Source of the DNA: Patescibacteria group bacterium
Lineage (GTDB): Bacteria > Patescibacteriota > Patescibacteriia > Patescibacteriales > UBA12465
DNA length: 64,000 nt
Reading direction: 5' to 3'
Assembly: GCA_041658665.1 (NCBI GenBank)
Contig: JBAZZR010000001.1
Location: 64,576 to 128,575, forward strand
The notes under the pieces were generated by a model. The model was not told the DNA's origin. It saw only the letters and a list, made by a program, of their open reading frames with translations, and ran no database searches. A program made the position numbers and the translations under genes. Each line of letters starts with the position of its first letter. The first letter of the stretch is position 1. Positions 4,118 through 25,643 of the stretch are shown one piece after another.

Positions 4118-4157
4118 AACAAACAATCACCCAAATAAATTTGGGTGATTGTTTGTT
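4118..4157. terminator. 17-bp perfect hairpin between convergent gene ends (probable bidirectional terminator)
   Basis: AACAAACAATCACCCAA / TTGGGTGATTGTTTGTT arms with a 6-nt loop. It lies between the stop codon at 4117 and the tRNA 3' end at 4160. Confidence 0.5.
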
Positions 4158-4159
4158 AG

Positions 4160-4234
4160 TGGACCCCAAGGGATTCGAACCCTTGACCCCCTGCTTGCAA
4201 AGCAGGTGCTCTAACCAGACTGAGCTAGGGGCCC
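4160..4234 (-). tRNA. tRNA-Ala (anticodon UGC)
   Basis: The reverse complement folds as a cloverleaf. Acceptor GGGCCCC/GGGGTCC includes G3:U70. Anticodon loop is TTTGCAA. T-arm is AAGGG-TTCGAAT-CCCTT. No CCA is encoded. Confidence 0.95.
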
Positions 4235-4294
4235 TCTTAATATAATTTTAAGTCTAAAAAAATATTAAATGATATTTTATATTTTAGCAAGTTA

Positions 4295-4549
4295 TTATTT
4301 AGGCGTGTAGCGCGTGAATGGACTAGTAATCCAAAACATGAAAGATTCGCCATTACCGGTTATAGCGATTAAGCCGATTATTAAGAAAATTAAGCCGACT
4401 AATTTATAACCGAAACGAGAGCCCCCTTCGACTCCGAGTTTATCCTCGAACCAGGCTATTCGCCCAAAGTTATTAAGAAACCATTCGGTTTTTATAACGA
4501 GAAAGCCGCCAGTCGTTAGGGCTAATAAGCCGATGATGATGTACCACAT
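4295..4549 (-). CDS. small membrane protein (84 aa, two or three predicted TM helices)
   Basis: Hydrophobic segments IIIGLLALTTGGFLVI and LVGLIFLIIGLIAI. The ORF is isolated with no overlap. Confidence 0.5.
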   Translation of the reverse strand: MWYIIIGLLALTTGGFLVIKTEWFLNNFGRIAWFEDKLGVEGGSRFGYKLVGLIFLIIGLIAITGNGESFMFWITSPFTRYTPK

Positions 4550-4575
4550 ATTATCTTAATATTATTTTAGATAGT

Positions 4576-5619
4576 TTATCTTGTATAATTAAGCGGGTTA
4601 TATCTAACACCATTAATTAATATTTCAAAATGGAGATGCGACCCAGTCGAGCGACCAGTCGACCCCATCGTGGCGATATTTTCTCCTTTTTCTACTTCCT
4701 GGCCTACTCGGACGAACAGTTTTGAAGCGTGGCCATAACGGGTTTTCTTGCCGCCACCGTGATTTATGACAATAGTATTGCCATAACCGCCATTGTAGCC
4801 GCCACGGGCGATTTCAACCACCCCTGAATCAGCCGCGTAAATCGGCGTACCAACTTTATTAGCAATATCGACACCGTTATGGCGCCAGGAGAAATATTGG
4901 GTAATTCGATAGCCGACGGTCGGCCAAGTCATCTTCCCGCCGCTTGTTTTCGCCGCTGGGGCTTTGATTAAATCGCGGATAGCAGATAAGCCGGTGTAAC
5001 TATTAGAGCGGCTACTAGCAGGTATGGCTTCGCTAATTTTTTTGGCTCCGGGAACAACGATTTTTTCGCCGATTTTCAAACTAGTGCCTAAATTATTACA
5101 AGCTAATATTTTATTAGTATCAACGCCGTAGCGTTTAGCAATTTTAGATAGGGTATCCCCGGATTTAACCGTGTATAAAATACCGCTATAAGGTAGAATA
5201 GTTAATTTGTCCCCCGCCCGGATGCGGCCCAGAGAGTTAAGGTTGTTTGCCCAAAGAATTGTATTAATAGTAAGACCAAAACGACTAGCAATCGAACTAA
5301 TCGTATCGCCGTTTTGGACAAGATAATAAATTATGGCGGTCCGCTGGGATAAGACAGTATTTTCTCCCGTCTCTTCGGTCGTCTCGGTAATAATTGGTTT
5401 AAAAACCAAATCCCCAGTATCGCTGAAAGTTAAAAGACTTTCTTCTTCACTCGCTTGTTCGCTGTTGCTACTCACTAAATTATTTTGTTTATCTAAAGTA
5501 CAAGAGTCGTCTAAATATTTTTCCTTATCAGGAAGGAGGAAATTATTTAAATTAGAAGTTTCTTCTATTAATTGTGCGTCCGGCAAAGCGCCAAATTCGG
5601 CTGGCACTAAATTCGCCAT
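4576..5619 (-). CDS. LysM-repeat M23 family metallopeptidase (peptidoglycan endopeptidase)
   Basis: Two LysM repeats (YLVQNGDTISSIASRFG, YTVKSGDTLSKIAKRYG). M23 motifs HNGVDI and GSTGRSTGSHLHFE. The true N-terminus may lie upstream (see findings). Confidence 0.9.
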   Translation of the reverse strand: MANLVPAEFGALPDAQLIEETSNLNNFLLPDKEKYLDDSCTLDKQNNLVSSNSEQASEEESLLTFSDTGDLVFKPIITETTEETGENTVLSQRTAIIYYLVQNGDTISSIASRFGLTINTILWANNLNSLGRIRAGDKLTILPYSGILYTVKSGDTLSKIAKRYGVDTNKILACNNLGTSLKIGEKIVVPGAKKISEAIPASSRSNSYTGLSAIRDLIKAPAAKTSGGKMTWPTVGYRITQYFSWRHNGVDIANKVGTPIYAADSGVVEIARGGYNGGYGNTIVINHGGGKKTRYGHASKLFVRVGQEVEKGENIATMGSTGRSTGSHLHFEILINGVRYNPLNYTR

Positions 5620-6071
5620 GATAGTTTGAGAAATTTTCGCCTCCCGGTCGCCTGGCTGATCAGGACTAACTAAATTTTTTAAAATAAAACCTAAGCTGAG
5701 GAGGATAATAAATAAATAGGCTAATTGGTTACGAAGCAGTTCCTGGGAGGCGCGGCTAGTTAAGTCGCTTTTTTTGAGACGGAATACCCCATAGTATATT
5801 TTAGCTAATAATTTAAAAATTAGGTTGCCAAACAGAAAACGAAAAAACCCGGCATTTAGTCGGAATAATTTAATTGATAAGCGCCCCAGAAAGTTTAGTG
5901 ATTTTATTGTTAAGAGACCCGCTTCTACGCTTATTTTTTTGAATTGTTGCTTAATTGGTTCTCCAATATGATTGTCGATTAAGCTCTAGATTATACTATC
6001 ATTTTTAAACTTTTATCGTCAATTTTATCAATTCGCTTTTTTTTGCTTTTATTGAGCGCAGAAAAATATTA

Positions 6072-6080
6072 TGGTATAAT
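6072..6080 (+). promoter_or_regulatory. extended -10 promoter element TGGTATAAT upstream of gpmA
   Basis: TGnTATAAT match about 67 nt upstream of the ATG at 6147. Confidence 0.45.
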
Positions 6081-6146
6081 TTAAGATAGTTGTTTGGGTA
6101 TTTATTAGAGGAATAGCCATTTTATTAAGAGAAAAATTAATGAATT

Positions 6147-6896
6147 ATGTATAAAATTATTTTAATTAGACACGGCGAAAGCCTTTGGAATAAAAAAGGT
6201 TTATTTACCGGTTGGACGGACGTTAATTTAAGCTCGCAGGGAGTTAGGGAGGCTCAAGCGGCCGGTCGAGTGATCAAAAAAAATAAGCTGAGTTTTGATT
6301 TAGCCTTCACTTCTTTGTTAAAGAGAGCCACACGGACTCTTAAAATAGTCTTAGACGAACTTCAGCAGCCAAAAATTCCAGTAATTGTTGATTGGCGTTT
6401 GAATGAGCGGCATTATGGAAATTTACAGGGTTTAAATAAGCAACAAATGGTTGAAAAATTTGATGAGAAACAAGTTTTGATTTGGCGGCGCAGTTATGAT
6501 GTTCGGCCGCCGAAAATTGAAGCGACTAATAAATATAATCAGAAAAAAGAAGCGCGTTATCAGAATATCCCCGTTCCCGAAGCGGAAAGTTTAAAAGACG
6601 TAGTCGCCCGAGTCATTCCGTTTTGGCGAGAGAAGGTCGTGCCCGAAATAAAAAACGGTAAAAAAATAATAATTGCGGCTAGCGGTAATAGTCTAAGAGC
6701 TTTAATTAAGTATTTAGATAAGGTTTCTAAACAGGCGATAGTCGACTTAAATATCCCGACGGGCATTCCCTTGGTTTATGAATTAGACGCTAAGCTTCGG
6801 CCGATAAAACATTATTATTTAGCTGACCAAAAGAAATTGCAAGCGGCCATTGAGGCCGTTAAGAAGCAGGGGAATAAGGTGATAGGGAATAAATAA
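6147..6896 (+). CDS. gpmA: 2,3-bisphosphoglycerate-dependent phosphoglycerate mutase
   Basis: N-terminal LIRHGESLWNKKGLFTGWTDV (RHGE catalytic His motif), ERHYG, and overall dPGM length. Confidence 0.9.
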   Translation: MYKIILIRHGESLWNKKGLFTGWTDVNLSSQGVREAQAAGRVIKKNKLSFDLAFTSLLKRATRTLKIVLDELQQPKIPVIVDWRLNERHYGNLQGLNKQQMVEKFDEKQVLIWRRSYDVRPPKIEATNKYNQKKEARYQNIPVPEAESLKDVVARVIPFWREKVVPEIKNGKKIIIAASGNSLRALIKYLDKVSKQAIVDLNIPTGIPLVYELDAKLRPIKHYYLADQKKLQAAIEAVKKQGNKVIGNK

Positions 6897-6911
6897 CTAA
6901 TATTAGATATA

Positions 6912-6942
6912 AATACCTCATATTAATTATAGGTATTTTTTT
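6912..6942 (+). terminator. intrinsic terminator after gpmA
   Basis: AATACCT / AGGTATT stem followed by a T-run. Confidence 0.55.
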
Positions 6943-6958
6943 GATTGTTTTGTAAATA

Positions 6959-6987
6959 TTGACGTTGGGTTATCAATATACCATAAT
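6959..6987 (+). promoter_or_regulatory. sigma70-type promoter upstream of ORF 7037
   Basis: TTGACG, a 17-nt spacer and CATAAT. Confidence 0.45.
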
Positions 6988-7036
6988 TAATCATTAATCT
7001 AATTAATAGTTTTTTTCAAAACAAAAGGAGACAGTC

Positions 7037-7465
7037 ATGTACAAGCGTATTTTAATAGTGGTTTTTGTCGGAATTTTTTCTCTTATCGTATCAGCCCAAG
7101 CTAGATTCGTTGAAGATATCAGCGATTCAGCTGATATTGAAAAAGATTGTCTGGTTAAGATGATTTTTAGAGACTCCGGAGTAATATCCGCTCAGATGTC
7201 ACAATTTTCTGTGCCTGGTCACAAAATAAAGGAAGTTCGAATTTATTCGGACGATGGGAAAGGATATTTTGAATCTATTGCGATTATAGATCCGGGTTAT
7301 TCAGATATATCGTCCCGGGTCCAATCTCAGCTTTTGAACTTTTCTACTAGGGAATATCACGGGAGAAGATTCACGGAATTTCAGGATCGCGTTTCTTTAA
7401 ATTCGATGGTCCGACAACATTTAAAAAAAGGAGAGAACATTGAAATTGAGTTCTACCTTAAATAA
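7037..7465 (+). CDS. hypothetical secreted protein (142 aa)
   Basis: N-terminal signal-like segment ILIVVFVGIFSLIVSAQA. Strong GGAGA ribosome-binding site 6 nt upstream of the ATG. Confidence 0.55.
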   Translation: MYKRILIVVFVGIFSLIVSAQARFVEDISDSADIEKDCLVKMIFRDSGVISAQMSQFSVPGHKIKEVRIYSDDGKGYFESIAIIDPGYSDISSRVQSQLLNFSTREYHGRRFTEFQDRVSLNSMVRQHLKKGENIEIEFYLK

Positions 7466-7526
7466 AAGAATTCCCGACCAAAGAAAGCCCGATCAGTTTT
7501 AATCCTTCTGATCGGAAAAAACAAAA

Positions 7527-7556
7527 AAAGCTCGATAATAGTCGAGCTTTTTCTTT
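7527..7556. terminator. bidirectional intrinsic terminator
   Basis: AAAGCTCGA / TCGAGCTTT stem flanked by an A-run upstream and a T-run downstream. It serves the convergent genes 7037..7465 (+) and 7606..8517 (-). Confidence 0.7.
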
Positions 7557-7605
7557 AAATTTAGATTAAGTTTTAGCTGATCGCTAGGACGAATATTTTT
7601 TAAGA

Positions 7606-8517
7606 CTATTGAACAATAATTGGGAATGATTTTTTACTGCCATAAGCCTTCGGACCCTCTTGGCAGAATTTTTTAATATTTTTTTTAAAATAAGGCGTTT
7701 TAGATTCTTGGATTTTACCGATTAAATAATAACTTAGCGCCATAATTAGCGCTGGTCCGATTTTTTTTGGCAATTTAATTTCCCAGCGATTTTTCTGAGC
7801 CCCGAAATATTTATTTTCTCCGAAGCTGATTATTAATTCCTTATCCCAGTTATTGACGAATTTCGCATGGCGCGCTTCGCCAAAGCTAAAGGCGCGTAAT
7901 GATAAATAGGGGCCGAATAACTCATTCCTCTTTATTTCTAACATCGGGGCGACTGGGCCGAATTTATCCGGCAAGATAAAAGAATAAGCCGAATAATTTT
8001 TAAAATTATTAGGTAGTTTCAAACTTTGAATATATTTTTTAATCGTCGCCGTTTTTTCGCCGCTGGCGCCGAGAATCATCCCCAAATAGGTCGAAGTATT
8101 ATAAGTATAAGGTTCAGGTAATTTTTGATAGGTTAATACTTCGTCAGCAATTTTAGCAGCGCGGGAATTAGCGTTACAGGTTAAAAGCGTAGTTTTTAGA
8201 CCGCTTTTCTTCGCTAATTTTATTTCCCAAATTGAATCTTTTTCGCCCGAAGCCGAAATAATTATCGCTTGAGTAAGGTTTTTATTTTTTATCAGCGGTT
8301 GATAGCTTCTGAGGATATTTTTAAAATTACTTTCATTGGCGACTACGGCCGGTCGGTCACTAAAAATTAGTAGGCCGGTATTATAGGCATTACCGCTGCC
8401 GACGATAATTGGAAAAGAAAATTTTTTTAAATTTAAGCGGGGCGGTTGATTAAGGCTAAAGAAATCTAAGGCCGCTAAAACGCTTTCATCGAGATTGGCT
8501 AATTTTAGAGTTTTCAT
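7606..8517 (-). CDS. SIS-domain sugar isomerase-like protein (possibly bifunctional phosphoglucose/phosphomannose isomerase)
   Basis: SIS-like segments IIVGSGNAYNTG and AIIISASGEKDS with about 300 aa length. The family call is tentative. Confidence 0.45.
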   Translation of the reverse strand: MKTLKLANLDESVLAALDFFSLNQPPRLNLKKFSFPIIVGSGNAYNTGLLIFSDRPAVVANESNFKNILRSYQPLIKNKNLTQAIIISASGEKDSIWEIKLAKKSGLKTTLLTCNANSRAAKIADEVLTYQKLPEPYTYNTSTYLGMILGASGEKTATIKKYIQSLKLPNNFKNYSAYSFILPDKFGPVAPMLEIKRNELFGPYLSLRAFSFGEARHAKFVNNWDKELIISFGENKYFGAQKNRWEIKLPKKIGPALIMALSYYLIGKIQESKTPYFKKNIKKFCQEGPKAYGSKKSFPIIVQ

Positions 8518-15957: not shown

Positions 15958-18504
15958 ATGTTTAGGGAAAATATCCAAAACGAGAAAGAACAAATGGCCG
16001 CTCGGACAAAAGAGGTTGAAGCGGATTTTCATGAGCAAAAAATGTCCCAGTTTTTAGAGAATCATGAGGTTATCTCTTATAAAGATGGAGATTGTGTTAT
16101 TGATGTGGAAAAGATAAAGAATTTTTCTGTTTCAAAAACTATTGATAAGCAATATTACTTTGATGGTGTAATACATTATATAACCAATGCTGATATTTTT
16201 GAATTTTTAAAAGATAAACAAGGCCGGGCTCAGACGGACGAAGAAACATCAGATAAATTTTTATTGTCGGACGAGGGGTCTTCTTTACCAAGGGCGGGCT
16301 TGGACGCTCGGGCAATAAGCGTTCAAGAGAATAAAAACCAAACAAGCCCGATAGTTGCTTTGCCTAAAAATATTTATGATGCTAAAAATGGCGATTTGGA
16401 TGAAGGGATATTAAAACCTTGGGAAGTAACCACTCATCCTGATTTTCGTCATAAGACAAAATTAACTGATGGCGCCGAAGCTTCTCTGGCGGATTTATTT
16501 TATCTTAATAAAATTAAAGAGGCCAAAATCCACCGTGATCAGACTGGTGCTTTGGTCTATTGGGATGGAGCAGATAATCAGTTTAAAAAATTTGTAGCCA
16601 CTCAGTCTGATAAAATTTTTCAGCGGCGGATAGTCTTCTCCGAGCAAGGTAAAAATTATTCTTTTCATGATAATACTAGCATGTTTATCAATAAATTTTT
16701 GCCGTTAGTTAAATCATTGAATCTTTTTGAGGCCGAAGATTTTCGCCGTGTTTCCGGGTCATCGACGGCTCAAACTTTATTAGCCCATGAAAGAAAAATT
16801 TTTGGTAGCCCTTATATTAATATTTCTAATAGCGCTAAGCATGCTCGTTATTATATTGGCCGGGATAAAATAGTCGGTACGGATCAAAAGATTAATGAGA
16901 ATATGAGAGCAGTAGAACTAGATCAAAATTTAGTCGGTGTCACTGAAGATTCTTTTGGTCGTCGTAAATTATTATATACTTTTCAGAAATTTAATGATCA
17001 AGAATATAAGAACTATGGCCTAGAAGATAAGGAAAGTTCTTATTGTCTGGTTTCGGGCAAAGAAATGAAAAAGCGGGTGAATGAATATCAAATATCAGAC
17101 TATTTGCCCCAACATAAAGACGAAAGCGCCGCTAATTATGCTAATCGTTTAGCTAATTTAAACGATGTTAAATTAACGAGCCGGACTTTTCGAGATCTGG
17201 CCTTGAAAGCGGAGACGCCGATTAATGATTTATCTTGGGCCGAGCAGCTTTTAATTACTAATTATGCTTTTGAAAGTAAAGATGAAAATAAATTATTAAA
17301 TTTTGTTAAGCAGTATAAAGTTGATGGCTTGCGATCGCTTATTACCGCCGAAGTAGATCAGAGGGCGGGAGACAAAATTATGGCTATTAGTGAAAAATTA
17401 CCATTTGCTCAAGCGAAGACGGTTTTTGAAAAGATTAGTGGCCTTAATCAGATGGCTACCCGTAAAGCAGATGAACTGGTCGACGTTTTTTTTGACGCCG
17501 AACGCGGCCAGGCGCCGCTCATGATGAGTGTTCATAAGGCGTTACTCAAAAAGACAAGCGAAATTGTCACGGCTTTTTATGAACACCTGAAGAAGGATGA
17601 TAATATTGAAGATTTATTGAGTGAGCTGGAGAAATGTAAGGCTGAAATGATTATGCTGGCTTCGGTCTTGAAAGAAGGAAAACTACAAGGAGAAAAAATT
17701 GATTTAGAAACGATTAGAGATTTAAATTTGGAAATAAAAGATTATGGTCAAGATATTGCCGAGCCGGATAAGAAGAATATTTTAAAGATTGCCCAGGCCA
17801 ATTGGAAAAATTTTGGTAATGACAAGATGGCCCAGGTAGTTTATGACGGTTTAGTCGAGACTTTGAACCAGGCTCAAGAGCAAAAGGCTTATATTTTAAA
17901 ATATAAAGATGAGGTGATCGGTTTTGTCCGTTTTGAGCGGACTAGCCACGGTACGGTTTATGCTGGGTCTCTTAATGTTTCCAAGGATTTGCGAGGTTTA
18001 TCGATTGGCAATGAGTTAATGGAGAAAGCGCTCCTGAAAGAAGGGGAACTTAATATTTTGGAAGCCTCAGCTTCTATTAAAATTCCGGCGGGCTGTAATT
18101 ATATTGAGAAAATTGGTTTTATCGCTGATGGCCTAATCGTAGATTATCACGGCACAGGTGAAAATTTACTGTCCATTAAATTAGATAAGGAAAAGAATAA
18201 AGAGTATAGTTTGCGTAATGAAGGAAAAGATAAGTTGCTTAGTTCAAGGGAATTGCAGGAAGCCATTAATGATTATAAACAATTGGATAATTTAATGGGC
18301 CGACCATATATTGTTTTACGTTTTGACTTGAATACGGAAATGGCCGAATATCAAGCAGCTTTGAGCCGACTTTTGCCCCAGGTTGATGATAATTTAAAAC
18401 CGCTAGAAGATAAGCAGGGGAAATATACTCTGACTCGTTATTTTTATGATAAGAATGAAGATCCGAAAGGCAATATTCGTTATTTGGTTTTTGAAAAAAA
18501 TTAA
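15958..18504 (+). CDS. large orphan protein (848 aa) with C-terminal GNAT acetyltransferase-like domain
   Basis: The GNAT-like segment VIGFVRFERTSHGTVYAGSLNVSKDLRGLSIGNELMEKAL lies near residues 650-700. No motif is recognised in the first ~600 aa. No TM or signal peptide. Confidence 0.65.
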   Translation: MFRENIQNEKEQMAARTKEVEADFHEQKMSQFLENHEVISYKDGDCVIDVEKIKNFSVSKTIDKQYYFDGVIHYITNADIFEFLKDKQGRAQTDEETSDKFLLSDEGSSLPRAGLDARAISVQENKNQTSPIVALPKNIYDAKNGDLDEGILKPWEVTTHPDFRHKTKLTDGAEASLADLFYLNKIKEAKIHRDQTGALVYWDGADNQFKKFVATQSDKIFQRRIVFSEQGKNYSFHDNTSMFINKFLPLVKSLNLFEAEDFRRVSGSSTAQTLLAHERKIFGSPYINISNSAKHARYYIGRDKIVGTDQKINENMRAVELDQNLVGVTEDSFGRRKLLYTFQKFNDQEYKNYGLEDKESSYCLVSGKEMKKRVNEYQISDYLPQHKDESAANYANRLANLNDVKLTSRTFRDLALKAETPINDLSWAEQLLITNYAFESKDENKLLNFVKQYKVDGLRSLITAEVDQRAGDKIMAISEKLPFAQAKTVFEKISGLNQMATRKADELVDVFFDAERGQAPLMMSVHKALLKKTSEIVTAFYEHLKKDDNIEDLLSELEKCKAEMIMLASVLKEGKLQGEKIDLETIRDLNLEIKDYGQDIAEPDKKNILKIAQANWKNFGNDKMAQVVYDGLVETLNQAQEQKAYILKYKDEVIGFVRFERTSHGTVYAGSLNVSKDLRGLSIGNELMEKALLKEGELNILEASASIKIPAGCNYIEKIGFIADGLIVDYHGTGENLLSIKLDKEKNKEYSLRNEGKDKLLSSRELQEAINDYKQLDNLMGRPYIVLRFDLNTEMAEYQAALSRLLPQVDDNLKPLEDKQGKYTLTRYFYDKNEDPKGNIRYLVFEKN

Positions 18505-19328
18505 TTAGTGTCACTTATGTTTCCTTCTTTAGCTCTTGTTTCGGCCGGAGCTTTTGTTTGTTGAGCTTTAATAGTGCTGGCCAAATTTTCCCAAATATAT
18601 TCGAATAGTAGTTTATTCATTTGATAAATATTTTTATCTTCGATGACAATAGCCATTTTGTTATCTGACGAAACCACTTGATATGAGACTTTATTATCAT
18701 AGATTTGGACACCGCTACTAAAGTTATAGAATTCCGGAGCGAGAAAGCGAAATTCGGTAATTAAACTGTTAAAATTTTTGAGAAATTGGCGATTGAAAGA
18801 AGTATCAGCGATGATAATCTTTTTTTTAATGGCAGTCTTTTCGCGTTTCTTAGAATAGGCGTCGTTAATATCTTTGATATTTTTTTCTACCGCTTCAATA
18901 TCGGCAAAAGTATAAATGGTCGTTCGACTAGCCAAAGTGTCATTGAGACTTTTTTCAATACCCTCCTCTCCTTCATAAAATTTTACTCCCGGCTTATTGC
19001 TAATTAAACTATAAGCCGAAACTAGATCGGGCAGGGCACTAATAAATTCTTTTTTGTGTTTAATGGCGTCTTTTTCTTTTTGATCGGCAATCGTTTCGAG
19101 GCCGGATGGGTGTTCAGCCGAAAAGATAGTAATACCTTTAACTTCCTCGGTTTTAGATACTAGATTAAGCTTAATTAATTCATCCAAGCCTTTATAAGCG
19201 ACCCCCCGGGGTCTTTTTATTTTTTTGGCGATATTACTGGCTTTATCCGGACCCTGGTTTAGGAGACAGTCCAGGATTTCAGCCTGAACCTTGGATAAAC
19301 CGAGATTATAGAGGGTTTTTTCAAACAT
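18501..19328 (-). CDS. TrmB-family transcriptional regulator
   Basis: N-terminal wHTH LGLSKVQAEILDCLLNQGPDKASNIAKKIKRPRGVAYKGLDELIKLNLV. Its 3' end overlaps the convergent 848-aa gene by 4 nt. Confidence 0.7.
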   Translation of the reverse strand: MFEKTLYNLGLSKVQAEILDCLLNQGPDKASNIAKKIKRPRGVAYKGLDELIKLNLVSKTEEVKGITIFSAEHPSGLETIADQKEKDAIKHKKEFISALPDLVSAYSLISNKPGVKFYEGEEGIEKSLNDTLASRTTIYTFADIEAVEKNIKDINDAYSKKREKTAIKKKIIIADTSFNRQFLKNFNSLITEFRFLAPEFYNFSSGVQIYDNKVSYQVVSSDNKMAIVIEDKNIYQMNKLLFEYIWENLASTIKAQQTKAPAETRAKEGNISDTN

Positions 19329-19446
19329 ATATTTGGACTTCCTGAGGTTATTAGCCTTTAAGTGTGGCTTATAACCTGTGGAAAACTTTACAAAAATTAA
19401 ATTTTGTTTTGTTAATTATTTAAAGAGATACTTATCCTATAGCTAT

Positions 19447-19475
19447 ATTATAGCGCATATTGTAACTAGTGTCAA
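19447..19475 (-). promoter_or_regulatory. perfect-consensus sigma70 promoter for the TrmB-like gene
   Basis: The minus strand reads TTGACA (19475-19470), a 17-nt spacer and TATAAT (19452-19447). Confidence 0.7.
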
Positions 19476-19570
19476 CTTTTAAAAAGACAAAAAAATAAAA
19501 TAAATAGGCCTATTTTAAGCATCTCTGTATATATTTTTGTAACATTTGCTAAAAATAGTCTTTTTAAGTA

Positions 19571-19599
19571 TTGACAATAATCTAAAACAATGCTAAACT
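19571..19599 (+). promoter_or_regulatory. sigma70 promoter driving the island RNA
   Basis: TTGACA (19571-19576), a 17-nt spacer and TAAACT (19594-19599). Predicted start near 19606. Confidence 0.65.
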
Positions 19600-19605
19600 T
19601 AAGGT

Positions 19606-20400
19606 ATCGAAAATGAGAAAGGAAAGAGACGGGCAAAACAAGTACATTACATTCAAATAAAATAATGGAAGGAGAGAGTCATTATTAATCACGATACTAT
19701 TACTTCTATAACAAGGGTACTAGGCGGATTGAGCTTTCTCATTCTATATAGAGACAGATTTTTCCGCCCAGTACCCTTTTTGGTCAAAAAACGGAGCGGA
19801 TAGTCCTGAAGAGGAGAGAGGTTTAGCCGCTGCCTTAGTGCCCACAGCCTAAGGCGGAACTAAATAGTAAGAATGGTTATTAGGAATAGAAATATTAATG
19901 GTTAGCGCCACCCCATGTTGCTAGCCAGAGTTCCCGCCGGGCCATTTAACGAACTCCCCTTCATAACTATCCGCTTCAAGCGGAAACCGAAGCGACTACG
20001 GGATAGTTGCCCCAATTATTTAGGGAATAAATAACAGTTAAACTAATTTGTCAATTTTGGGAGATTAAATGGACACATAAGCTTTAGAAATAAAGTGGAG
20101 AGGGTTCATCTCCTGAGATTAACAAAAGTTTGACAGTTTGCTTCCGGATTAAATCCGGAATCAGGCGCCAAGTGAGTCAGGGCCAAGAAGCGTCGCAAAC
20201 CGCTTCAAGGTCGAGACGATCTTAGTACGGCGTGGCTCAGTTATCCGCCAGCTGGCGGATGAGCAAGCTCCCGGGACAGCACTAACGCCACCGTCTTCTT
20301 ACGAGGAGATCGGCTGAGCCCTAAACCTTGAACAAGCTTAGGCCCAGAAATTTCCTCGGAAAAATATAAGTTTGAGAGGGAAGAGTTCTTTAAATTATTT
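19606..20400 (+). ncRNA. candidate large structured non-coding RNA (~0.8 kb, unclassified)
   Basis: No ORF of 60 aa or more on either strand in the supplied track. Local GC by hand count is 35/60, 38/60 and 30/60 for the lines starting 20161, 20221 and 20281, against an AT-rich background. There are many verified hairpins (19715-19776, 19832-19855, 19973-19993, 20142-20160, 20187-20206, 20243-20260). The 3' boundary is uncertain. Confidence 0.6.
19715..19781 (+). terminator. terminator-like or attenuator hairpin inside the island RNA leader
   Basis: GGGTACTAGGCGGA ... TCCGCCCAGTACCC (14 bp, one mismatch) followed by TTTTT. It could end a ~175-nt sRNA or act as an attenuator. Confidence 0.4.
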
Positions 20401-20422
20401 CACAACAAAAAAGGAGTTCCGC

Positions 20423-20650
20423 GTGAGTAAAGTAAGCGCGGGAAGACATATGAGTGATATTCAATTAGCATTAATCAATGCGGGTTTAGTTAGTTCGCAG
20501 AAAATTAATGAAATCAATCGCCAGAAGGCGATTGATACAGAGTTTGTTAGAACCGCTAAAAAAGCGGTTCCCGGAGCCGGACGGAAAATCTGGCAAAAGT
20601 ACGCCGACCTGAAAAGGCGCGCTTCGAAAAATTTACAGTTTATCTATTAA
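20423..20650 (+). CDS. small basic protein (~75 aa), orphan
   Basis: AAGGAG at 20411-20416, 6 nt before the in-frame GTG at 20423; an ATG at 20450 is an alternative start. Lys/Arg-rich sequence ...RKIWQKYADLKRRASKNL. Confidence 0.5.
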   Translation: MSKVSAGRHMSDIQLALINAGLVSSQKINEINRQKAIDTEFVRTAKKAVPGAGRKIWQKYADLKRRASKNLQFIY

Positions 20651-20865
20651 ACTGTAAAAAAAATTTCTAAAAAAAGTTTCTAAAAACGCCGATATGCGGC
20701 ACGATTCCTAAGTTTCCGGCTTACCTCCAAGGTATCAAAGGGCTGTTTAGAAGGAATCAAAAATTTTAAATTAGTTTAGCTTATTCTGATTACAAAAAAT
20801 AAGCAGGCCATCCTACCGGACCGCCGAGGCTATCACTACGCCTGAAGTGTCCACCAAAGTTTAAA

Positions 20866-20943
20866 GAGCAGTGTCGTTCAAACATTGCTCTCCCTCCCGG
20901 GATGTGCGTCTCGGCTGATGAGTCGAAAATGACGAAAGGGAAG
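20866..20943 (+). ncRNA. type III hammerhead ribozyme, copy 1, with a 5'-adjacent hairpin
   Basis: Core: UCCCU-C (C17 at 20896). Stem I is CCGGGA/UCUCGG with loop UGUGCG. CUGAUGA at 20915-20921. Stem II is GUC-GAAAAU-GAC. GAAA at 20934-20937. Stem III is GGGA pairing with UCCC. Predicted cleavage falls between 20896 and 20897. The upstream hairpin is 20866-20890. Confidence 0.85.
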
Positions 20944-20986
20944 AACATTTACAACTAAATAGACAGTAATTTCATTTTTTGACTGA

Positions 20987-21048
20987 TTTATTTTAGTTAT
21001 TATTTTTAAAGTTTTAAAAAAGACTTTAGGGATAATAACTAAAATAAA
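20987..21048 (+). repeat. conserved AT-rich long hairpin (copy 1) between the ribozyme and the downstream start codon
   Basis: Arms TTTATTTTAGTTATTAT / ATAATAACTAAAATAAA form 17 perfect bp. The homologous copy at 24167-24225 carries compensatory changes. Confidence 0.7.
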
Positions 21049-21060
21049 AAGGAATATAAA

Positions 21061-21918
21061 ATGAAAGAAAAATATTATTTAATTAGCGATGATCTTGTTT
21101 TGTCTGAGCAAGAATTCGTTAATAAGTACAAAGTGTCTCGCGCGACTTACTATCGTGCCAAAAAGTCCGGCTATTTCATGCTGGAATATCATAAGAGGGA
21201 GATTGAGATAAATAGTGTTTTTGTTGAAAATAATTTGGCGTTAATATTTGAGTGCGCCAAGATGGCGTCGTATATTGTAGCGAGGAGATACTGGGGTCCT
21301 CTTTATTGGAGAGAAATTCAAAAAAAGTTTGGCATCACAACCGTCGACTTCCGTGATGAGGCGTTTTTGAGAATTGTTGAAAGGAGTGCGCATATTGCTG
21401 AAAAAACAGCTGGTGCTAGCGATAGCTCAAGACGTTGTTATATGCTAAAAGCCGCAAAATACGCGGTGCAGGAGTTTATTTCATTAAAACTATTTCGTTA
21501 TAGTGATAGGAATAGTCGTTTTGACGAAGAAAATAACGAAGAGGATGATAGGAGCGGTAGGATCTTTTCCTATGATCCAACCAATGAAATACATGCGCGC
21601 GTTGACACAATGGGTTCTAGAACTGAAAAAATTATCCGCTTATTAAACGAAAATGAGCGGAAAATATTTTTGGCCATCTGCGCTGGCTGGGATAGGGAGG
21701 AAATAGCGTTTCTAGATAACATAGATAACATTACGTCCACTGAAATATTAGATCGGATTAAAAAAATAATTAAAAAAATCCGGCTATTGTATGGAATTAG
21801 TGAGGGAAGAGTTGATTGGTATCCGCCTAAAACGGATAAAAATCACTCAGAAGAATTGCGTCAACTTCGTAAGAAAGTAGCGCAATATCTAAATGAAAAT
21901 TCTGTTCACTTAGTGTAA
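21061..21918 (+). CDS. divergent sigma-70-like / HTH DNA-binding protein
   Basis: N-terminal HTH (KVSRATYYRAKKSG). The C-terminal segment LNENERKIFLAICAGWDREEIA...ILDRIKKIIKKIR resembles sigma-70 region 4. FRDEAFLRIVERS resembles region 2. No database check was possible. Confidence 0.45.
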   Translation: MKEKYYLISDDLVLSEQEFVNKYKVSRATYYRAKKSGYFMLEYHKREIEINSVFVENNLALIFECAKMASYIVARRYWGPLYWREIQKKFGITTVDFRDEAFLRIVERSAHIAEKTAGASDSSRRCYMLKAAKYAVQEFISLKLFRYSDRNSRFDEENNEEDDRSGRIFSYDPTNEIHARVDTMGSRTEKIIRLLNENERKIFLAICAGWDREEIAFLDNIDNITSTEILDRIKKIIKKIRLLYGISEGRVDWYPPKTDKNHSEELRQLRKKVAQYLNENSVHLV

Positions 21919-21953
21919 AAATTAATCAATAAAAATAAAAAGGAGTCACAATC

Positions 21954-22706
21954 ATGGTTACGAAGGCGAAAGCAATTTTATTGTCAACGGAATTTATTAA
22001 TGGTTTAACTCAATTTATTCCGCAATTTTGTAGTGGTGAAGTAGTTTGGGATAATTATCACGCTTCCGCACTCTGCGGCGGGACATTAATCCCGGTTATA
22101 TTTAAATTCCGGGCGGGCGAGAAACCATCTACAGATCAGGCCTATAATGTAATAGTTTCCTCCGCGCGCGGCGACCAAGCTCGCCGGGAAAATCGAGCGA
22201 CGATTGATCACTGGGAATTGAAGTTTTATCCAGTGGGAGTCGATGAAGCAAAAAATAAATTTTATTTTCTAAGCTGTAAATTTGACGAAGAAATAGAATT
22301 TGAAAATCGAAAAGTCCCTGAAAATATAATCCGTTTCAAGGGGGTCAGTATGAAGGGAGTCATTTTTTCCCAACCGATTGGAGTTGAACCTAAATATGAT
22401 ATCCAATTAGTAACAACTGAAGTCGTATTTGACAGTTCGGTTATGCTACGTCTTGAAGGAGCGCAAACAAAAATTTTGCGTGGGCATAAGATAATAGAAA
22501 AAAAAGATAAATTTTTATCAATAGTCATCTACGATCATCGTAAAGTTTATGATGTCGTGGCTCAATGTTGTCATGAACGAAAAATTCTCAGTAATGGTCG
22601 AGTATTTGACTATTATAAACTCCACAATTTTATCGATGACGGACGTGGAGTTAATCATATTCTCACCGCTGACGGTATTTCAGCGGTAGAAGAAACGGTA
22701 GTTTAG
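21954..22706 (+). CDS. orphan protein (250 aa)
   Basis: AAGGAG ribosome-binding site 7 nt upstream. No TM, signal peptide or recognisable motif. Confidence 0.6.
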   Translation: MVTKAKAILLSTEFINGLTQFIPQFCSGEVVWDNYHASALCGGTLIPVIFKFRAGEKPSTDQAYNVIVSSARGDQARRENRATIDHWELKFYPVGVDEAKNKFYFLSCKFDEEIEFENRKVPENIIRFKGVSMKGVIFSQPIGVEPKYDIQLVTTEVVFDSSVMLRLEGAQTKILRGHKIIEKKDKFLSIVIYDHRKVYDVVAQCCHERKILSNGRVFDYYKLHNFIDDGRGVNHILTADGISAVEETVV

Positions 22707-22717
22707 TGCTAAGTTCT

Positions 22718-22800
22718 GCAGATTAGTTTGTTCAACTAATCTGCCTCTTTTCAAGGGCAGTAAAAATTTTAGTGCCCTTGAAATCGGATTCTTTAATAAC
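22718..22800 (+). terminator. double-hairpin terminator-like module, copy A
   Basis: Hairpin 1 is GCAGATTAGT/ACTAATCTGC followed by CTCTTTTC. Hairpin 2 is TCAAGGGCA/TGCCCTTGA with a loop GTAAAAATTTTAG. The homologous module is at 25404-25470. Confidence 0.55.
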
Positions 22801-22827
22801 GTGAGTCAGAAATAATCTTTATTTCAC

Positions 22828-22885
22828 AATATTGGACAGTACTTTGAATATATTTTAATAAATATTTAGAGTACTGCCCAATATT
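22828..22885 (+). promoter_or_regulatory. internal promoter bracketed by 16-nt inverted repeats (candidate operator)
   Basis: TTGAAT (22844-22849), a 17-nt spacer and TAGAGT (22867-22872). It is flanked by AATATTGGACAGTACT (22828-22843) and AGTACTGCCCAATATT (22870-22885), which match at 15 of 16 positions as an inverted repeat. Confidence 0.45.
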
Positions 22886-22971
22886 AGGCAGGGTCAGCCA
22901 ATGTCCAGTCGTAGTCCGTAAAAAAATAATTAGGACCAGACAAATGACAACGGCAAAAACAAGGAGTAGAA

Positions 22972-23550
22972 ATGAGAACTTATTTTTGGAATCGCGGTAG
23001 CTTAATCCCCGGTATATCCGTCACTAAAGATGATAAACTAGGCTTTATAGTTTATCTCGGTGAGGATGGGCGAGGTAGACGTTATGAAAAAGTTGGTCTA
23101 CTGAGAAATAACCCGGCGGAAATTATAGATGGGAAAATTTTTGAAGCTCATCCGGTTAGAATTACCGTTGGTAAAGGTACGGACAAAGAAAGAAATTTTT
23201 TTGTTCTCGCCAAGTCGATCGACAACGCCGATCCCCGTGTTATTGTCCATGTAAATACGGAATGTGTTTACACCCGCGACACTGTAGGTAAATGGACAAT
23301 GAAAGTCGGGGCCCCAGAAACCATAGTTAAGGCCTATGGCGCTCACGGAATTGCTGGCCGGATTGGTAATTGGGATGACGGGTTGATATTAATGAAACCA
23401 GGAGATGTTTTGGAGATTCGCCCGGAAGGTGGTCATAAGGTAGATTCCTACGCGCTATTTTTCGATGCGGAAGGAATCTTAACATCCATGGTTTGGAAAG
23501 ATTACGAAGCTATGCAAGCTATTTCCGGCGGGGAGGTAGATTGGTTATGA
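22972..23550 (+). CDS. orphan protein (192 aa)
   Basis: AAGGAG ribosome-binding site upstream. The stop codon overlaps the next start (ATGA at 23547-23550). Confidence 0.6.
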   Translation: MRTYFWNRGSLIPGISVTKDDKLGFIVYLGEDGRGRRYEKVGLLRNNPAEIIDGKIFEAHPVRITVGKGTDKERNFFVLAKSIDNADPRVIVHVNTECVYTRDTVGKWTMKVGAPETIVKAYGAHGIAGRIGNWDDGLILMKPGDVLEIRPEGGHKVDSYALFFDAEGILTSMVWKDYEAMQAISGGEVDWL

Positions 23551-24008
23551 AAACATTAAAATGTTTTACTCTGTCTGGGAAAGACGTTTCTCCCGTGATT
23601 AAAATGGAAAAAGGAAAAATTTCCTGTTGGGGTGGGCCCGGTCAACCCGACATTCCTTTCGTTTATGCTCTAAATCCTGAAGTAAACGAATATAGTATTG
23701 CTAATATCGGTAAAAAAACTAATCAATTTTTTTTACAAATTGGTGAAGGAGAAGTTGACCAGCATCAAACCCTAGTTTTTGTCCATGAATATTTTAATGG
23801 GTCTGGTGCAAAAAGATGGCCCGGTTTCCACATTGATTGGAATAATGCCGGACAAGTGGAAATTTTGATTCAGACCCAGCGCCACTATGGGAGCGGTTCC
23901 GATACTTGGTCGTTAATCATCGCTCCACACGGCTGGGTAGAAAATATTGCCGCTCAATTTATTGATGAGCGAGATTATCCGAGTCAGATTATTTCCTACA
24001 AATTGTAA
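23547..24008 (+). CDS. orphan protein (153 aa), translationally coupled to the upstream ORF
   Basis: ATG at 23547 preceded by GGAGG at 23532-23536. The ORF-track start at 23493 lies inside the upstream gene and has no ribosome-binding site. Confidence 0.55.
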   Translation: MKTLKCFTLSGKDVSPVIKMEKGKISCWGGPGQPDIPFVYALNPEVNEYSIANIGKKTNQFFLQIGEGEVDQHQTLVFVHEYFNGSGAKRWPGFHIDWNNAGQVEILIQTQRHYGSGSDTWSLIIAPHGWVENIAAQFIDERDYPSQIISYKL

Positions 24009-24060
24009 TTTTAGAGTAGGGTCGGCTGTATAAAATCTGGGGGCACTTAAGTTCAAAATT

Positions 24061-24139
24061 GAGCAGCTTTTGTTCAAAAGCTGCTCTCCCTCCCGAGATG
24101 CGTGTCTCGGCTGATGAGTCCGAAAGGACGAAAGGGAAG
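24061..24139 (+). ncRNA. type III hammerhead ribozyme, copy 2, with a 5'-adjacent hairpin
   Basis: Upstream hairpin GAGCAGCTTTT/AAAAGCTGCTC (24061-24086). UCCCU-C (C17 at 24092). Stem I is CCGAGA/UCUCGG. CUGAUGA at 24111-24117. Stem II is GUCC-GAAA-GGAC. GAAA at 24130-24133. Stem III is GGGA. Predicted cleavage falls between 24092 and 24093. Confidence 0.88.
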
Positions 24140-24166
24140 GACCTTAAAAATTAAATAAGACTATGA

Positions 24167-24225
24167 TTATTTAGTTACTATTTTTGAAGTTTTAAAAAAA
24201 GACTTTAGAGATAGTAACTAAATAA
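24167..24225 (+). repeat. conserved AT-rich long hairpin (copy 2)
   Basis: Arms TTATTTAGTTACTAT / ATAGTAACTAAATAA form 15 perfect bp. The T-to-C change on one arm is matched by an A-to-G change on the other, relative to copy 1. Confidence 0.7.
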
Positions 24226-24274
24226 TAAAAATCAAAAAATCCGCGGTCCCGACGTATTCGGGCAAGGAGAAAAA

Positions 24275-25387
24275 ATGGAACATATCAATAGTTTTGCTCC
24301 CGATGGAAGCATAACAGGATTAACTTACCGCCAAGCTTGTGCGGTAATATTTATCGCTACGGGGAATATGGAATTTCCTCCAAATCCTTTTGATAAGGAA
24401 GATATTAAAAGGATCGGAGGGACTTTTGATGGAAATAACGGTAATTACCCAAATCTTTATCCCGTCGAGGGCGGCGGTATAGAGTATGTTACCATTAGTG
24501 GCCGGAGTATTAAAATTACTCTGGACAATGATGGTCAATGGCGGCTGGACTGTTCCTCATGGTGGAGCAGTTCAAAAATATTTCAAGCGACAATCCTCGA
24601 TGCGCTAGAAGTAATGGCTTCGTACAAACTAGAGGACAACATTCCATTATCATATTTTGATAGGAATGTTAATTTTGAGGAAATTTTCGGACGAGTTTCC
24701 TTGGGAAATTTTGGTCAACCAGAGTTGGACGATCTGGCTTACATCTTATTTGACGGGAAGCTACCTGATGGCTACACCAGATTTCCACTAAAAATATCCT
24801 ATGGGGATATGGACATCGATGCGGACTATGAGTCCGTTTGGTATGGCGGAAAGAATTCTGGTGGTTGGGTCGGCTTTAAGGACTATGCCGATAAGCTAAA
24901 AGAGGGTGAAACAAAAGGGGTTAAATGGGAATTTTGGCAAGTAGGACGCCATTATTTCAACCAGTCTTCATTTAGTCATAATTATGACAGATGTGAAGAC
25001 ACTGGAGATTGGTACCTCTGTATTAATGGTGGTGTAAAAGTTACCGATGCGGAAGTTTCCGATAATCAAGAAGTTGTGAAAATACTTCAATTCGCGGGAA
25101 TTCCGACCAAGAAAAAAGATTTTATGGAGGCGTGGAATTTGGATATAACTGGAGAGTCTATCCCGACGCCATATTCCCAATATTATGGCGGAGAAAATTC
25201 CGGCGGAAACGTCGGCATTTCGATTGAGACCCGCTATGAAGGGCCAGAAGGAAAAGTGATTGAGAGTCGATCATTTAATGAGTCGACCTTTGATCACGAT
25301 GTGGATAAAATACGACCCGCTATCCATATCGTACTTCGTTCTGGTGCGCCCGTGATTGACATGTCGCGTATGTGGGCAGTATTGTAA
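24275..25387 (+). CDS. orphan protein (370 aa) with an internal duplicated motif
   Basis: AAGGAGA ribosome-binding site. Internal repeat YGGKNSGGWVGF...FNQSSFSHNYD versus YGGENSGGNVGI...FNESTFDHDVD. No TM or signal peptide. Confidence 0.6.
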   Translation: MEHINSFAPDGSITGLTYRQACAVIFIATGNMEFPPNPFDKEDIKRIGGTFDGNNGNYPNLYPVEGGGIEYVTISGRSIKITLDNDGQWRLDCSSWWSSSKIFQATILDALEVMASYKLEDNIPLSYFDRNVNFEEIFGRVSLGNFGQPELDDLAYILFDGKLPDGYTRFPLKISYGDMDIDADYESVWYGGKNSGGWVGFKDYADKLKEGETKGVKWEFWQVGRHYFNQSSFSHNYDRCEDTGDWYLCINGGVKVTDAEVSDNQEVVKILQFAGIPTKKKDFMEAWNLDITGESIPTPYSQYYGGENSGGNVGISIETRYEGPEGKVIESRSFNESTFDHDVDKIRPAIHIVLRSGAPVIDMSRMWAVL

Positions 25388-25403
25388 TAAATGTTCATAA
25401 TTT

Positions 25404-25470
25404 GGAGGTTAGTCAACTAACCTCCCCTTTTCCAAGTGCGATAAAATTTTAGCGCTTTTGGAATTCGATT
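25404..25470 (+). terminator. double-hairpin terminator-like module, copy B
   Basis: Hairpin 1 is GGAGGTTAG/CTAACCTCC followed by CCTTTTCC. Hairpin 2 is CCAAGTGCG/CGCTTTTGG with a loop ATAAAATTTTAG. Confidence 0.55.
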
Positions 25471-25476
25471 TTTTAA

Positions 25477-25581
25477 CCGCCTTTGAAGCGTAGAGCGGAA
25501 AAGACAGAGACATTATTAAACTCTCTCTCCTTAATATTGTACTTTCTTTTCACGACGCTCTACACTTGAGGGGCGGTTTTT
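25477..25581 (+). terminator. long imperfect hairpin plus T5 at the right edge of the island
   Basis: CCGCCTTTGAAGCGTAGAGCG (25477-25497) pairs imperfectly with CGCTCTACACTTGAGGGGCGG (25556-25576), followed by TTTTT. Confidence 0.5.
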
Positions 25582-25589
25582 GTTATAAT
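25581..25589 (+). promoter_or_regulatory. extended -10 element TGTTATAAT upstream of ftsK
   Basis: TGnTATAAT, 55 nt upstream of the ATG at 25644. Confidence 0.45.
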
Positions 25590-25643
25590 AAAAGCGGAAT
25601 CATCAGAGACCGCCTAAAATAATGGTTTCTCAATTTTTTATTT

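Follow-up and report, generated by a model that had tools for sequence, protein, structure and literature searches.

Shine-Dalgarno-led genes in a Patescibacteria chromosome mark a probable resident accessory-gene locus punctuated by hammerhead ribozymes

Why would consecutive genes of a bacterial chromosome begin behind strong Shine-Dalgarno (SD) sequences when the core genes on either side begin without them? This question is raised by a stretch of 64,000 nucleotides (nt), here called the window, from a Patescibacteria group bacterium (GenBank assembly GCA_041658665.1, contig JBAZZR010000001.1); the window is part of an 821,845-bp metagenomic contig. The genes in question lie in an island at positions 19330-25643, the GC content stays at 33-43% throughout, and the flanks of the island hold ordinary core genes (ftsK, murE, rpoB, rpoC, leuS, recJ, ksgA and others). 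A preliminary description of the window had recognized the contrast and proposed that the island genes are either compositionally foreign or translated by a distinct initiation mode. Our analysis speaks for the latter, with canonical spacing, conservation across species, repeated leader modules and a different start context in the core genes, and it adds organizers of the island that the earlier account lacked, namely a pair of hammerhead ribozymes together with a large structured RNA and conserved 3' elements. We consider it probable, at roughly 60%, that the island is resident in a Parcubacteria-type genome as a variable locus for accessory genes, built from portable expression cassettes.

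The SD contrast itself is robust. All motifs listed in the preliminary description were found again, and AGGA or GGAG stands 5-11 nt before the start in six of six island open reading frames (ORFs), compared with 5 of the 41 other window genes. With the stricter motif GGAG/GAGG at -17 to -4 the counts are 5/6 and 3/41 (Fisher p = 2e-4); since random 14-mers of the window contain it at a frequency of 0.04, the core genes are at background level. Hybridization energies were computed as a duplex with the canonical anti-SD CACCUCCUUA, which may not be the host's own 16S tail; no rRNA gene is present within the window or in the fetched contig flanks. Measured in this way, the 41 non-island genes reach a median of only -1.4 kcal/mol, and the island genes bind far more strongly (Mann-Whitney p = 2.5e-4). 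When alternative in-frame starts within 40 codons are allowed, the core genes at or below -6 kcal/mol rise from 4/41 to 5/41, and independently called gene starts agree with those used here. Ten more genes of this contig, located beyond the window, all lack an SD. Of the three non-island exceptions with GGAG/GAGG, two are the genes at 64-1053 and 7037-7465, which the preliminary description had named. Both are orphans with promoters of their own; at 7037 the promoter is of the TTGACG/ATAATT type, and the small protein encoded there carries a signal-peptide-like segment at its N terminus.

The same contrast recurs in related loci (denoted by L numbers). Across nine of them, with 38 island genes and 23 flank genes, 26 of the island genes but only two of the flank genes reach -6 kcal/mol or lower, and GGAG occurs 4-11 nt from the start, with a mode of 5 nt, in 23/38 versus 0/23. 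Island leaders prefer GGAGA over GGAGG, and SD motifs and their spacing are kept between orthologous leaders of different species. A further contig, L174, carries a four-gene cluster (223-2513; a homologue of the island protein p192 and three unknowns) with an AGGAGG-type SD on all four genes; right behind it come RNase H, rpsB, tsf and hisS (2826-8126), none of which has one. The core genes of the window have a start context of another kind: the 20 nt upstream are 76% A+T, and a T occupies position -1 in 31/41 non-island genes compared with 1/6 island genes. Together, these two features may represent a non-SD start-context signal of the lineage. In 9 of the 41, at least five of six positions of TATAAT are matched by a box that ends 4-12 nt before the start. 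Among them are murE, with a perfect TATAAT ending 7 nt ahead of its ATG, and fic, with TATTAT ending 10 nt ahead, in line with the leaderless appearance previously ascribed to both.

What, then, sets the island apart? Upstream of the genes at 21061 and 24275 lie two 150-nt direct repeats (D1 and D2), each with a type III hammerhead. Both copies follow the order CCCU-C17, stem I, CUGAUGA, stem II, GAAA and GGG, and in copy 1 the CUGAUGA...GAAA core, C17 and the A15.1-U16.1 pair are intact. A pattern scan of Joint Genome Institute (JGI) metagenomes yielded 45 loci, from which 36 type III sequences, including the copies of the window and of L003, were aligned. No core column varies. In stem I, pairing reaches 100% and 6/6 pairs show compensatory changes; over the whole alignment 96.5% of the cells are paired, versus 32-54% in slid controls. 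A covariance model built from these 36 sequences (R1) finds exactly two matches in the window and one to five in related islands (two each in L003, L021 and L015, five in L023 plus L024, as 3 + 2). The core, the three covarying helices and the open stem III identify the elements, at the level of sequence and covariation, as type III hammerheads. They form a compact subclass in which stem I has 6 bp and stem II has 4 bp, and in which the predicted cleavage site lies in the sequence CCCUC.

The same subclass is also present in other low-GC metagenomic contigs (L031, L034, L046, L025; L006, L016, L026/L036). There, some hammerheads abut an SD-less start codon and others adjoin a convergent tRNA gene; the subclass therefore has wider uses in these organisms.

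The hammerheads are embedded in a larger leader module. Directly 5' of each lies a hairpin, an arrangement shared with the island-type hammerheads of L003, L023, L021 and L040; in front of copy 1 this hairpin would form the 3' terminus of the upstream cleavage product. Downstream of each ribozyme follows a long AT-rich hairpin and then the SD. In the copy-2 leader a short GC hairpin intervenes, and the SD is unpaired in the minimum free energy (MFE) fold. This combination of GC hairpin and CAAGGAGAA leader also heads unrelated genes in L003 (twice), L023 (twice), L024, L021 (three times) and L018 (twice).

Upstream of the cassettes, the regulator and island promoters stand back-to-back (Table 1). 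The TrmB-family gene adjoins the island in every related locus whose upstream region is available, with the same orientation in L003, L023 and L021 and with nucleotide-level similarity in L055, L125 and L139. The island promoter is kept in five of six loci with an upstream region (window, L003, L023, L021 and L026), and transcription would start near 19607. Between the regulator gene and this promoter, the block TGTGGA(A/T)AACTTTACAAA at 19377-19394 (consensus TGTGGATAA-CTTTACAAA; TGTGGAAAA in the window) is likewise kept in the window, L003, L023, L021 and L026. It fits the DnaA-box consensus, yet it may be the operator of the regulator rather than a DnaA site.

The 1.1 kb between the TrmB-family gene and the first island ORF contains no credible ORF. 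Instead, positions 19641-20395 are 85% identical to the homologous region of L003, whereas the flanking coding DNA is 73-79% identical, and the predicted RNA folds with an MFE of -264.6 kcal/mol (z = -8.7). Its long-range helix is retained in a relative that lacks the enclosed ~130 nt. The nine sequences aligned for the 3' domain support 63 pairs (94% of cells paired). Double changes are seen at 27 of these pairs, whereas slid controls have 3-8 and shuffled alignments 14 +/- 2.3, with 0/500 reaching the observed number. In all loci this RNA, of ~0.8-1 kb, lies between the TrmB-family gene and the array of cassettes punctuated by hammerheads; it is enlarged by a domain of ~190 nt in L003 and L026/L125. 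Against Rfam 15, neither the large RNA nor the 3'-terminal element has a match at the gathering score, and at E <= 10 only chance-level miRNA-type matches appear for 19607-20400 or 25475-25582. One tRNA and one sub-threshold Hammerhead_3 are all that Rfam reports in the window. The large RNA is apparently undescribed.

The island closes with a terminator-like element that is 91% identical to that of L024 and recurs in L003, L015 and L018. In the alignment of the five copies, 18 of the 43 pairs are supported by double changes. The apical loop of the element, CUCUCUCUCC(UU) at 25522-25533, resembles the 16S anti-SD tail and is the exact complement of the AAGGAGAGAG loop located 5.8 kb upstream in the large RNA (inverted repeat I12). 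Neither loop varies among the loci. Judged by this complementarity, the two loops could form a kissing-loop pair or act as an SD-masking element.

Whether the island belongs to the chromosome or only visits it can be judged from its relatives. RNA modules of this kind are common to at least seven other Patescibacteria contigs, with different cargo and the same SD contrast. Promoter, large RNA, hammerheads, hairpin-plus-SD leaders and 3' element are shared by L023 plus L024, L021, L015, L018, L026/L125, L048/L055 and L139, and the locus-bearing genomes are labelled Patescibacteria, Parcubacteria M6-OD1-4 or Candidatus Falkowbacteria. (A scan of genome contigs with an 18-mer of the large RNA was too permissive, with 119 matches that are mostly chance in unrelated phyla and ~5 true loci of the candidate phyla radiation, CPR.) In L003 the island again lies beside the TrmB-family gene, upstream of murE and rpoB, and carries a radical SAM gene, two unknowns, a STIV B116-like gene, p282 and p265. 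Across loci the cargo is a combinatorially different mosaic, which in the relatives comprises viperin-like (pVip-like) radical SAM, AAA-Csx3, MoxR plus VWA, DHH and STIV B116-like types; such cargo is typical of conflict and defence systems. The island is therefore probably no fresh insertion, since it occupies the same chromosomal slot beside the TrmB-family gene in several related species.

Table 1. Positions of the features of the island and of the homologues of its large RNA (window coordinates, except for the homologues, which are numbered within their own locus; SD energies in kcal/mol).
Feature	Position	Strand	Remarks
TrmB-family winged-helix transcription regulator gene	18501..19328	-	Pfam PF01978 TrmB, E = 1.4e-8; divergent from island
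Divergent control region	19377..19475	.	DnaA-box-like block and regulator-gene promoter
Regulator-gene promoter	19475-19447	-	perfect TTGACA-17-TATAAT; promoter scan
Island promoter, sigma-70-type	19571..19599	+	TTGACA, 17 nt, TG-n-TAAACT (extended -10); scan 10/12 with TG
Large structured non-coding RNA/leader, ~790 nt	19607..20400	+	multi-domain; putative ends
5' hairpin of large RNA	19662-19685	+	invariant loop AAGGAGAGAG at 19669-19678
Long-range helix of large RNA	19795-19816 with 19954-19975	+	conserved
3' domain of large RNA	20050-20375	+	nine helices; nine-sequence alignment
SD AAGGAG	20411-20416	+	before GTG 20423; -8.2
75-aa ORF	GTG 20423..20650	+	69% amino-acid (aa) identity to L023; absent from L003
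Hairpin, CGTTCAA loop	20867..20889	+	directly 5' of hammerhead 1; read from sequence
Type III hammerhead 1	20885..20948	+	predicted cut after C20896; 76.3 bits to R1
AT-rich hairpin, 29 bp	20987..21048	+	after hammerhead 1; inverted repeat I4; fold z = -7.7; kept in L003
SD AAGGA	21049-21053	+	before 21061; weak, -5.6
p285, 285-aa all-helical protein	21061..21918	+	C-terminal LuxR/sigma-r4-like helix-turn-helix possible (low-confidence model)
SD AAGGAG	21940-21945	+	before 21954; -8.2
p250, 250-aa orphan ORF	21954..22706	+
3' module, two hairpins	22718..22796	+	terminator-like hairpin, then TTTCAAGGGCAG...CCCTTGAAA; repeats D4/I16 and terminator scan
Long imperfect hairpin	22829..22886	+	ahead of third module; read from sequence
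SD AAGGAG	22960-22965	+	before 22972; -8.0
p192, 192-aa ORF, and coupled 153-aa ORF	22972..24008	+	ATGA overlap
SD GGAGG	23532-23536	+	before 23547; -12.4
Hairpin GAGCAGCTTTT-GTTC-AAAAGCTGCTC	24061..24086	+	directly 5' of hammerhead 2; within direct repeat D1
Type III hammerhead 2	24081..24144	+	predicted cut after C24092; 78.9 bits to R1
AT-rich hairpin, 35 bp	24159..24233	+	after hammerhead 2; repeats I2 and D2; fold z = -7.5
GC hairpin CCCG-acgtatt-CGGG	24248-24262	+	copy-2 leader; followed by CAAGGAGAAAAA (with SD), then ATG
SD AAGGAG	24264-24269	+	before 24275; -8.5
p370, 370-aa orphan ORF	24275-25387	+	9 relatives among 1.8e9 representative proteins
3' module, second copy, two hairpins	25394..25470	+	after last island gene; repeats D4/I11/I13
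3'-terminal element	25475..25582	+	long covarying terminator-like hairpin and U-run
Large-RNA homologue, L003	5460-6440
Large-RNA homologue, L023	4160-4950
Large-RNA homologue, L021	1520-2120
Large-RNA homologue, L015	~100-850
Large-RNA homologue, L026	3650-2740	-
Large-RNA homologue, L055	5586-6284
Large-RNA homologue, L139	1610-650	-

The proteins of the window's own cassettes offer few clues to their roles. None of the six has a family in Pfam, PHROGs or PADLOC, and searches of PDB sequences with p285, p370 and p250 returned nothing significant. p285 has a single homologue, in L003, with 81% identity and from a Patescibacteria genome; its AlphaFold2 model, built from the single sequence, is unusable, with a predicted local distance difference test (pLDDT) score of 41. 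For p370, with nine sequences, AlphaFold2 is confident for residues 10-120 only, a Foldseek comparison of the model with the PDB gave nothing at E <= 0.001, and the distant relatives sit on contigs of 1-2 kb without gene context. The protein contains an internal repeat, YGGKNSGGWVGF / YGGENSGGNVGI (DNA repeat D7). p192, whose gene harbours the SD of the coupled 153-aa ORF, has 11 homologues, one of which is that of the SD-led cluster beside the SD-less rpsB and tsf. A distant homologue (L176 8001-8411), 40% identical across 56% of the query, is found on a 61% GC contig with TnpB, ParB, AEP primase and resolvase, whose genes carry strong SDs. It is a hint that mobile elements of unrelated bacteria with SD use keep some of the cargo families in circulation. 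Beyond the island, a 2716-aa ORF without Pfam annotation is located downstream of ksgA on the same contig, just past the 3' end of the window (L173 11542-19692).

Taking these elements together, we propose the following scheme. From the single sigma-70-type promoter at 19571-19599, under control of the TrmB-family regulator, the island genes would be co-transcribed as a long RNA headed by the ~790-nt structured leader. The hammerheads would then process this RNA in vivo, with cuts behind C20896 and C24092. Every upstream product would be left with a hairpin at its 3' end, and each downstream product would begin with a 5'-OH, followed by the ribozyme stems and the long AT-rich hairpin. Behind these, a single-stranded A-rich stretch would present the AAGGAG 5-8 nt ahead of the start codon, such that the 30S subunit could be recruited to the island genes by SD/anti-SD pairing. 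Because they are buried in a long structured RNA, the island genes would be barred from leaderless entry and from entry at AU-rich starts with U at -1; their resulting need for an SD would confine SDs to the island and a few other orphan genes. Ribozyme, hairpin and SD would, furthermore, make each cassette independent of its neighbours, so that cargo can be shuffled. That the ribosome reads these boxes is argued for by their canonical spacing and by the presence of SDs on two further, independent orphan genes, each of which has its own promoter; it is a function that we infer from sequence.

Several observations weigh against this scheme. The third module, which begins at 22972, has no hammerhead in the R1 scan, and the transcript may be interrupted by terminator-like hairpins inside the island (22718-22744). 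Under the Rfam model Hammerhead_3, copy 2 scores 18.9 bits, below the gathering score of 48.5, and copy 1 is not reported. Since the alignment of copy 2 skipped stem I, the subclass is poorly represented by that model. Local folding energies, be it around the starts or over the leaders from -80 to -16, show no difference between island and core. We accordingly dropped the idea that island starts are locally more structured, which leaves the argument that structure forces the use of SDs to the long-range architecture of the leaders alone. L174 shows the SD contrast with no hammerhead detected, so SD use marks accessory genes more generally and not just ribozyme-linked ones. Finally, the anti-SD CCUCCU is undetectable in about half of the Parcubacteria 16S genes (Tsurumaki et al. 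2022, PMC9297842); if the host is one of the Parcubacteria without anti-SD, the AAGGAG boxes cannot be classical SDs.

Could the SDs instead be baggage inherited from an SD-using donor or mobile element that recently delivered the island? Such an origin would suit six ORFs that are all orphans without Pfam or PHROG family, the cargo mosaic among relatives, and the distant p192 homologue with its strong SDs on a mobile-element contig of high GC. It would also suit codon choice: the pooled synonymous-codon distance of the island is 0.785, compared with 0.477 +/- 0.10 in random core sets (0.65% of resamples as extreme), a mildly atypical usage and the one part of the suspected compositional foreignness that held up. 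GC content (0.404 versus 0.399 in the core) and GC at third codon positions (GC3; 0.361 versus 0.363), by contrast, match the core. We looked for the usual marks of a horizontally acquired island or prophage and found neither a deviant GC composition nor an integrase or transposase domain in the island, no recombinase within +/-10 kb, and no tRNA or direct-repeat boundary: the sole tRNA is 15 kb away, flanking direct repeats are absent, and the single repeat that links the two ends is the 21-nt inverted repeat I12. Moreover, the locus with its promoter, large RNA and 3' element stays beside the TrmB-family gene at 70-91% nucleotide identity in several species, SD motifs and spacing are conserved between orthologous leaders, and p285 relatives as well as locus-bearing genomes are annotated Patescibacteria, Parcubacteria or Falkowbacteria. 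We therefore regard recent foreign origin as unlikely. A degraded prophage or phage satellite, whose SDs would be phage-type translation signals, is less likely still. Clustered hammerheads were first described in prophages, where several of them flank variable genes, sometimes beside a marR-type regulator (Perreault et al. 2011, PMC3088659), and the cargo of related islands includes STIV B116-like genes and others that resemble anti-phage or counter-defence genes. The island is, however, merely 6 kb long, sits at a conserved chromosomal site and has no phage gene families: the best PHROG match is a family of unknown function with E = 0.017, and structural, terminase and integrase genes are lacking. 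In 2.9 million IMG/VR viral contigs, scans for the hammerhead variant, for the large-RNA signature and for the 3' element all gave zero matches.

A different objection concerns what the boxes bind. The AAGGAG(A) motifs might mainly be RNA-RNA sites for the CU-rich loop CUCUCUCUCCUU of the island itself, or for another regulator, with the partner masking or organizing the leaders. This loop is invariantly CU-rich at five loci. A stretch of 10 nt in it forms a perfect complement to the invariant hairpin loop AAGGAGAGAG, 7 nt could pair with AAGGAGA, the leader consensus, and the preference for GGAGA over GGAGG in island leaders also fits. Yet the boxes lie at the canonical SD distance (mode 5 nt) and occur on the coupled gene pair and on the two orphan genes, with no such element nearby; neither loop varies, so that covariation is silent on their pairing. 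We thus give pairing as the principal role of the boxes a low probability, although a role in RNA-RNA contacts and one in ribosome binding are not mutually exclusive. Should the whole contrast be an artefact of sampling or start annotation, given that the window offers just six island genes with starts taken from ORF logic? This is hardly credible in view of the Fisher p value, the single further core gene rescued by alternative starts, the agreement of independent gene starts, the 0/10 among extra contig genes, and the replication in nine loci and L174. The reading as a resident, variable locus of portable cassettes can, on the other hand, be extended to a hitherto undescribed, Parcubacteria-specific, RNA-centred platform, in which a ~0.8-1 kb RNA heads ribozyme-insulated SD cassettes of conflict and defence genes. 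The anti-SD-like loop CUCUCUCUCCUU would either kiss AAGGAGAGAG or mask the SDs, giving the platform its own switch for SD-dependent translation on host ribosomes that are otherwise SD-independent and perhaps anti-SD-less. We offer this extension as a speculative and rather doubtful one.

The resident-locus reading has implications beyond this contig. A lineage whose core genes are SD-less but which keeps a small, sharply bounded SD-led set makes start-site choice by reduced ribosomes testable. For metagenomic CPR genomes, in which most accessory and defence genes are orphans, the presence of an SD could serve as a cheap marker of such cassettes. Furthermore, the locus contributes a covariation-supported RNA of ~0.8 kb and a compact hammerhead subclass to a phylum in which hardly any non-coding RNAs have been described.

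Among known systems, the closest in outline are the hammerhead clusters around variable prophage genes, for which cutting a long transcript into gene-length mRNAs was proposed as the role (Perreault et al. 2011, PLoS Comput Biol, PMC3088659). They share with the island the same-strand hammerheads, the variation of genes from genome to genome and a nearby regulator gene of the MarR/TrmB type. Unlike them, the island resides in Patescibacteria chromosomes without phage genes or viral-contig matches, its hammerheads are all type III and of one compact subclass, and it adds hairpin-plus-SD leaders, a leading ~0.8-kb RNA and a conserved 3' element. Its hammerheads, moreover, mark the only SD-led genes of an otherwise SD-less genome region. 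A fixed platform followed by a variable mosaic of short cassettes is also reminiscent of integron arrays and defence islands, and several cassettes of the relatives look like parts of conflict or defence systems (pVip-like radical SAM, AAA-Csx3, MoxR/VWA). An integron cassette array was nonetheless rejected, as there is no IntI-type recombinase within +/-10 kb, no integrase or attC-type site, and the repeats between cassettes are ribozyme and hairpin modules; in contrast to defence islands, the window's own cargo has no match to a PADLOC defence model. With the large bacterial non-coding RNAs OLE, GOLLD, ROOL, HEARO and raiA the large RNA of the island has in common its length of hundreds of nt, its multiple domains with covarying helices and its position beside variable or mobile-type genes. 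It differs from these in having no Rfam 15 match and in its place as the putative 5' leader of a cassette array behind a presumably regulated promoter.

As for translation, Jha et al. are said to have described in 2021 an SD-independent initiation in Bacteroidota, with a sequestered anti-SD and rare SD-led genes. The window resembles these Bacteroidota, and the part of the Parcubacteria that has lost the anti-SD (Tsurumaki et al. 2022), in its SD-less core with AU-rich starts and its small minority of genes with a strong SD. In Bacteroidota, however, that minority concerns ribosomal-protein autoregulation, whereas here it consists of accessory or orphan cassettes. The individual cassette finds its best parallel in an engineered device, RiboJ, which combines the sTRSV hammerhead with a 23-nt hairpin upstream of a ribosome-binding site (RBS; PMC6206723). 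The order hammerhead, hairpin, exposed SD and start codon is the same, and by analogy similar effects would be expected, that is removal of upstream RNA, a hairpin-protected 5' end and translation decoupled from context. Insulation of this kind would fit the differing cargo that the relatives carry behind the same RNA modules. The island modules are natural, however, their hairpins reach 29-35 bp, and some cassettes have an extra GC hairpin before the SD. As natural analogues of the engineered insulator made up of ribozyme, hairpin and RBS, they suggest that context-independent modules evolved for the swapping of accessory genes.

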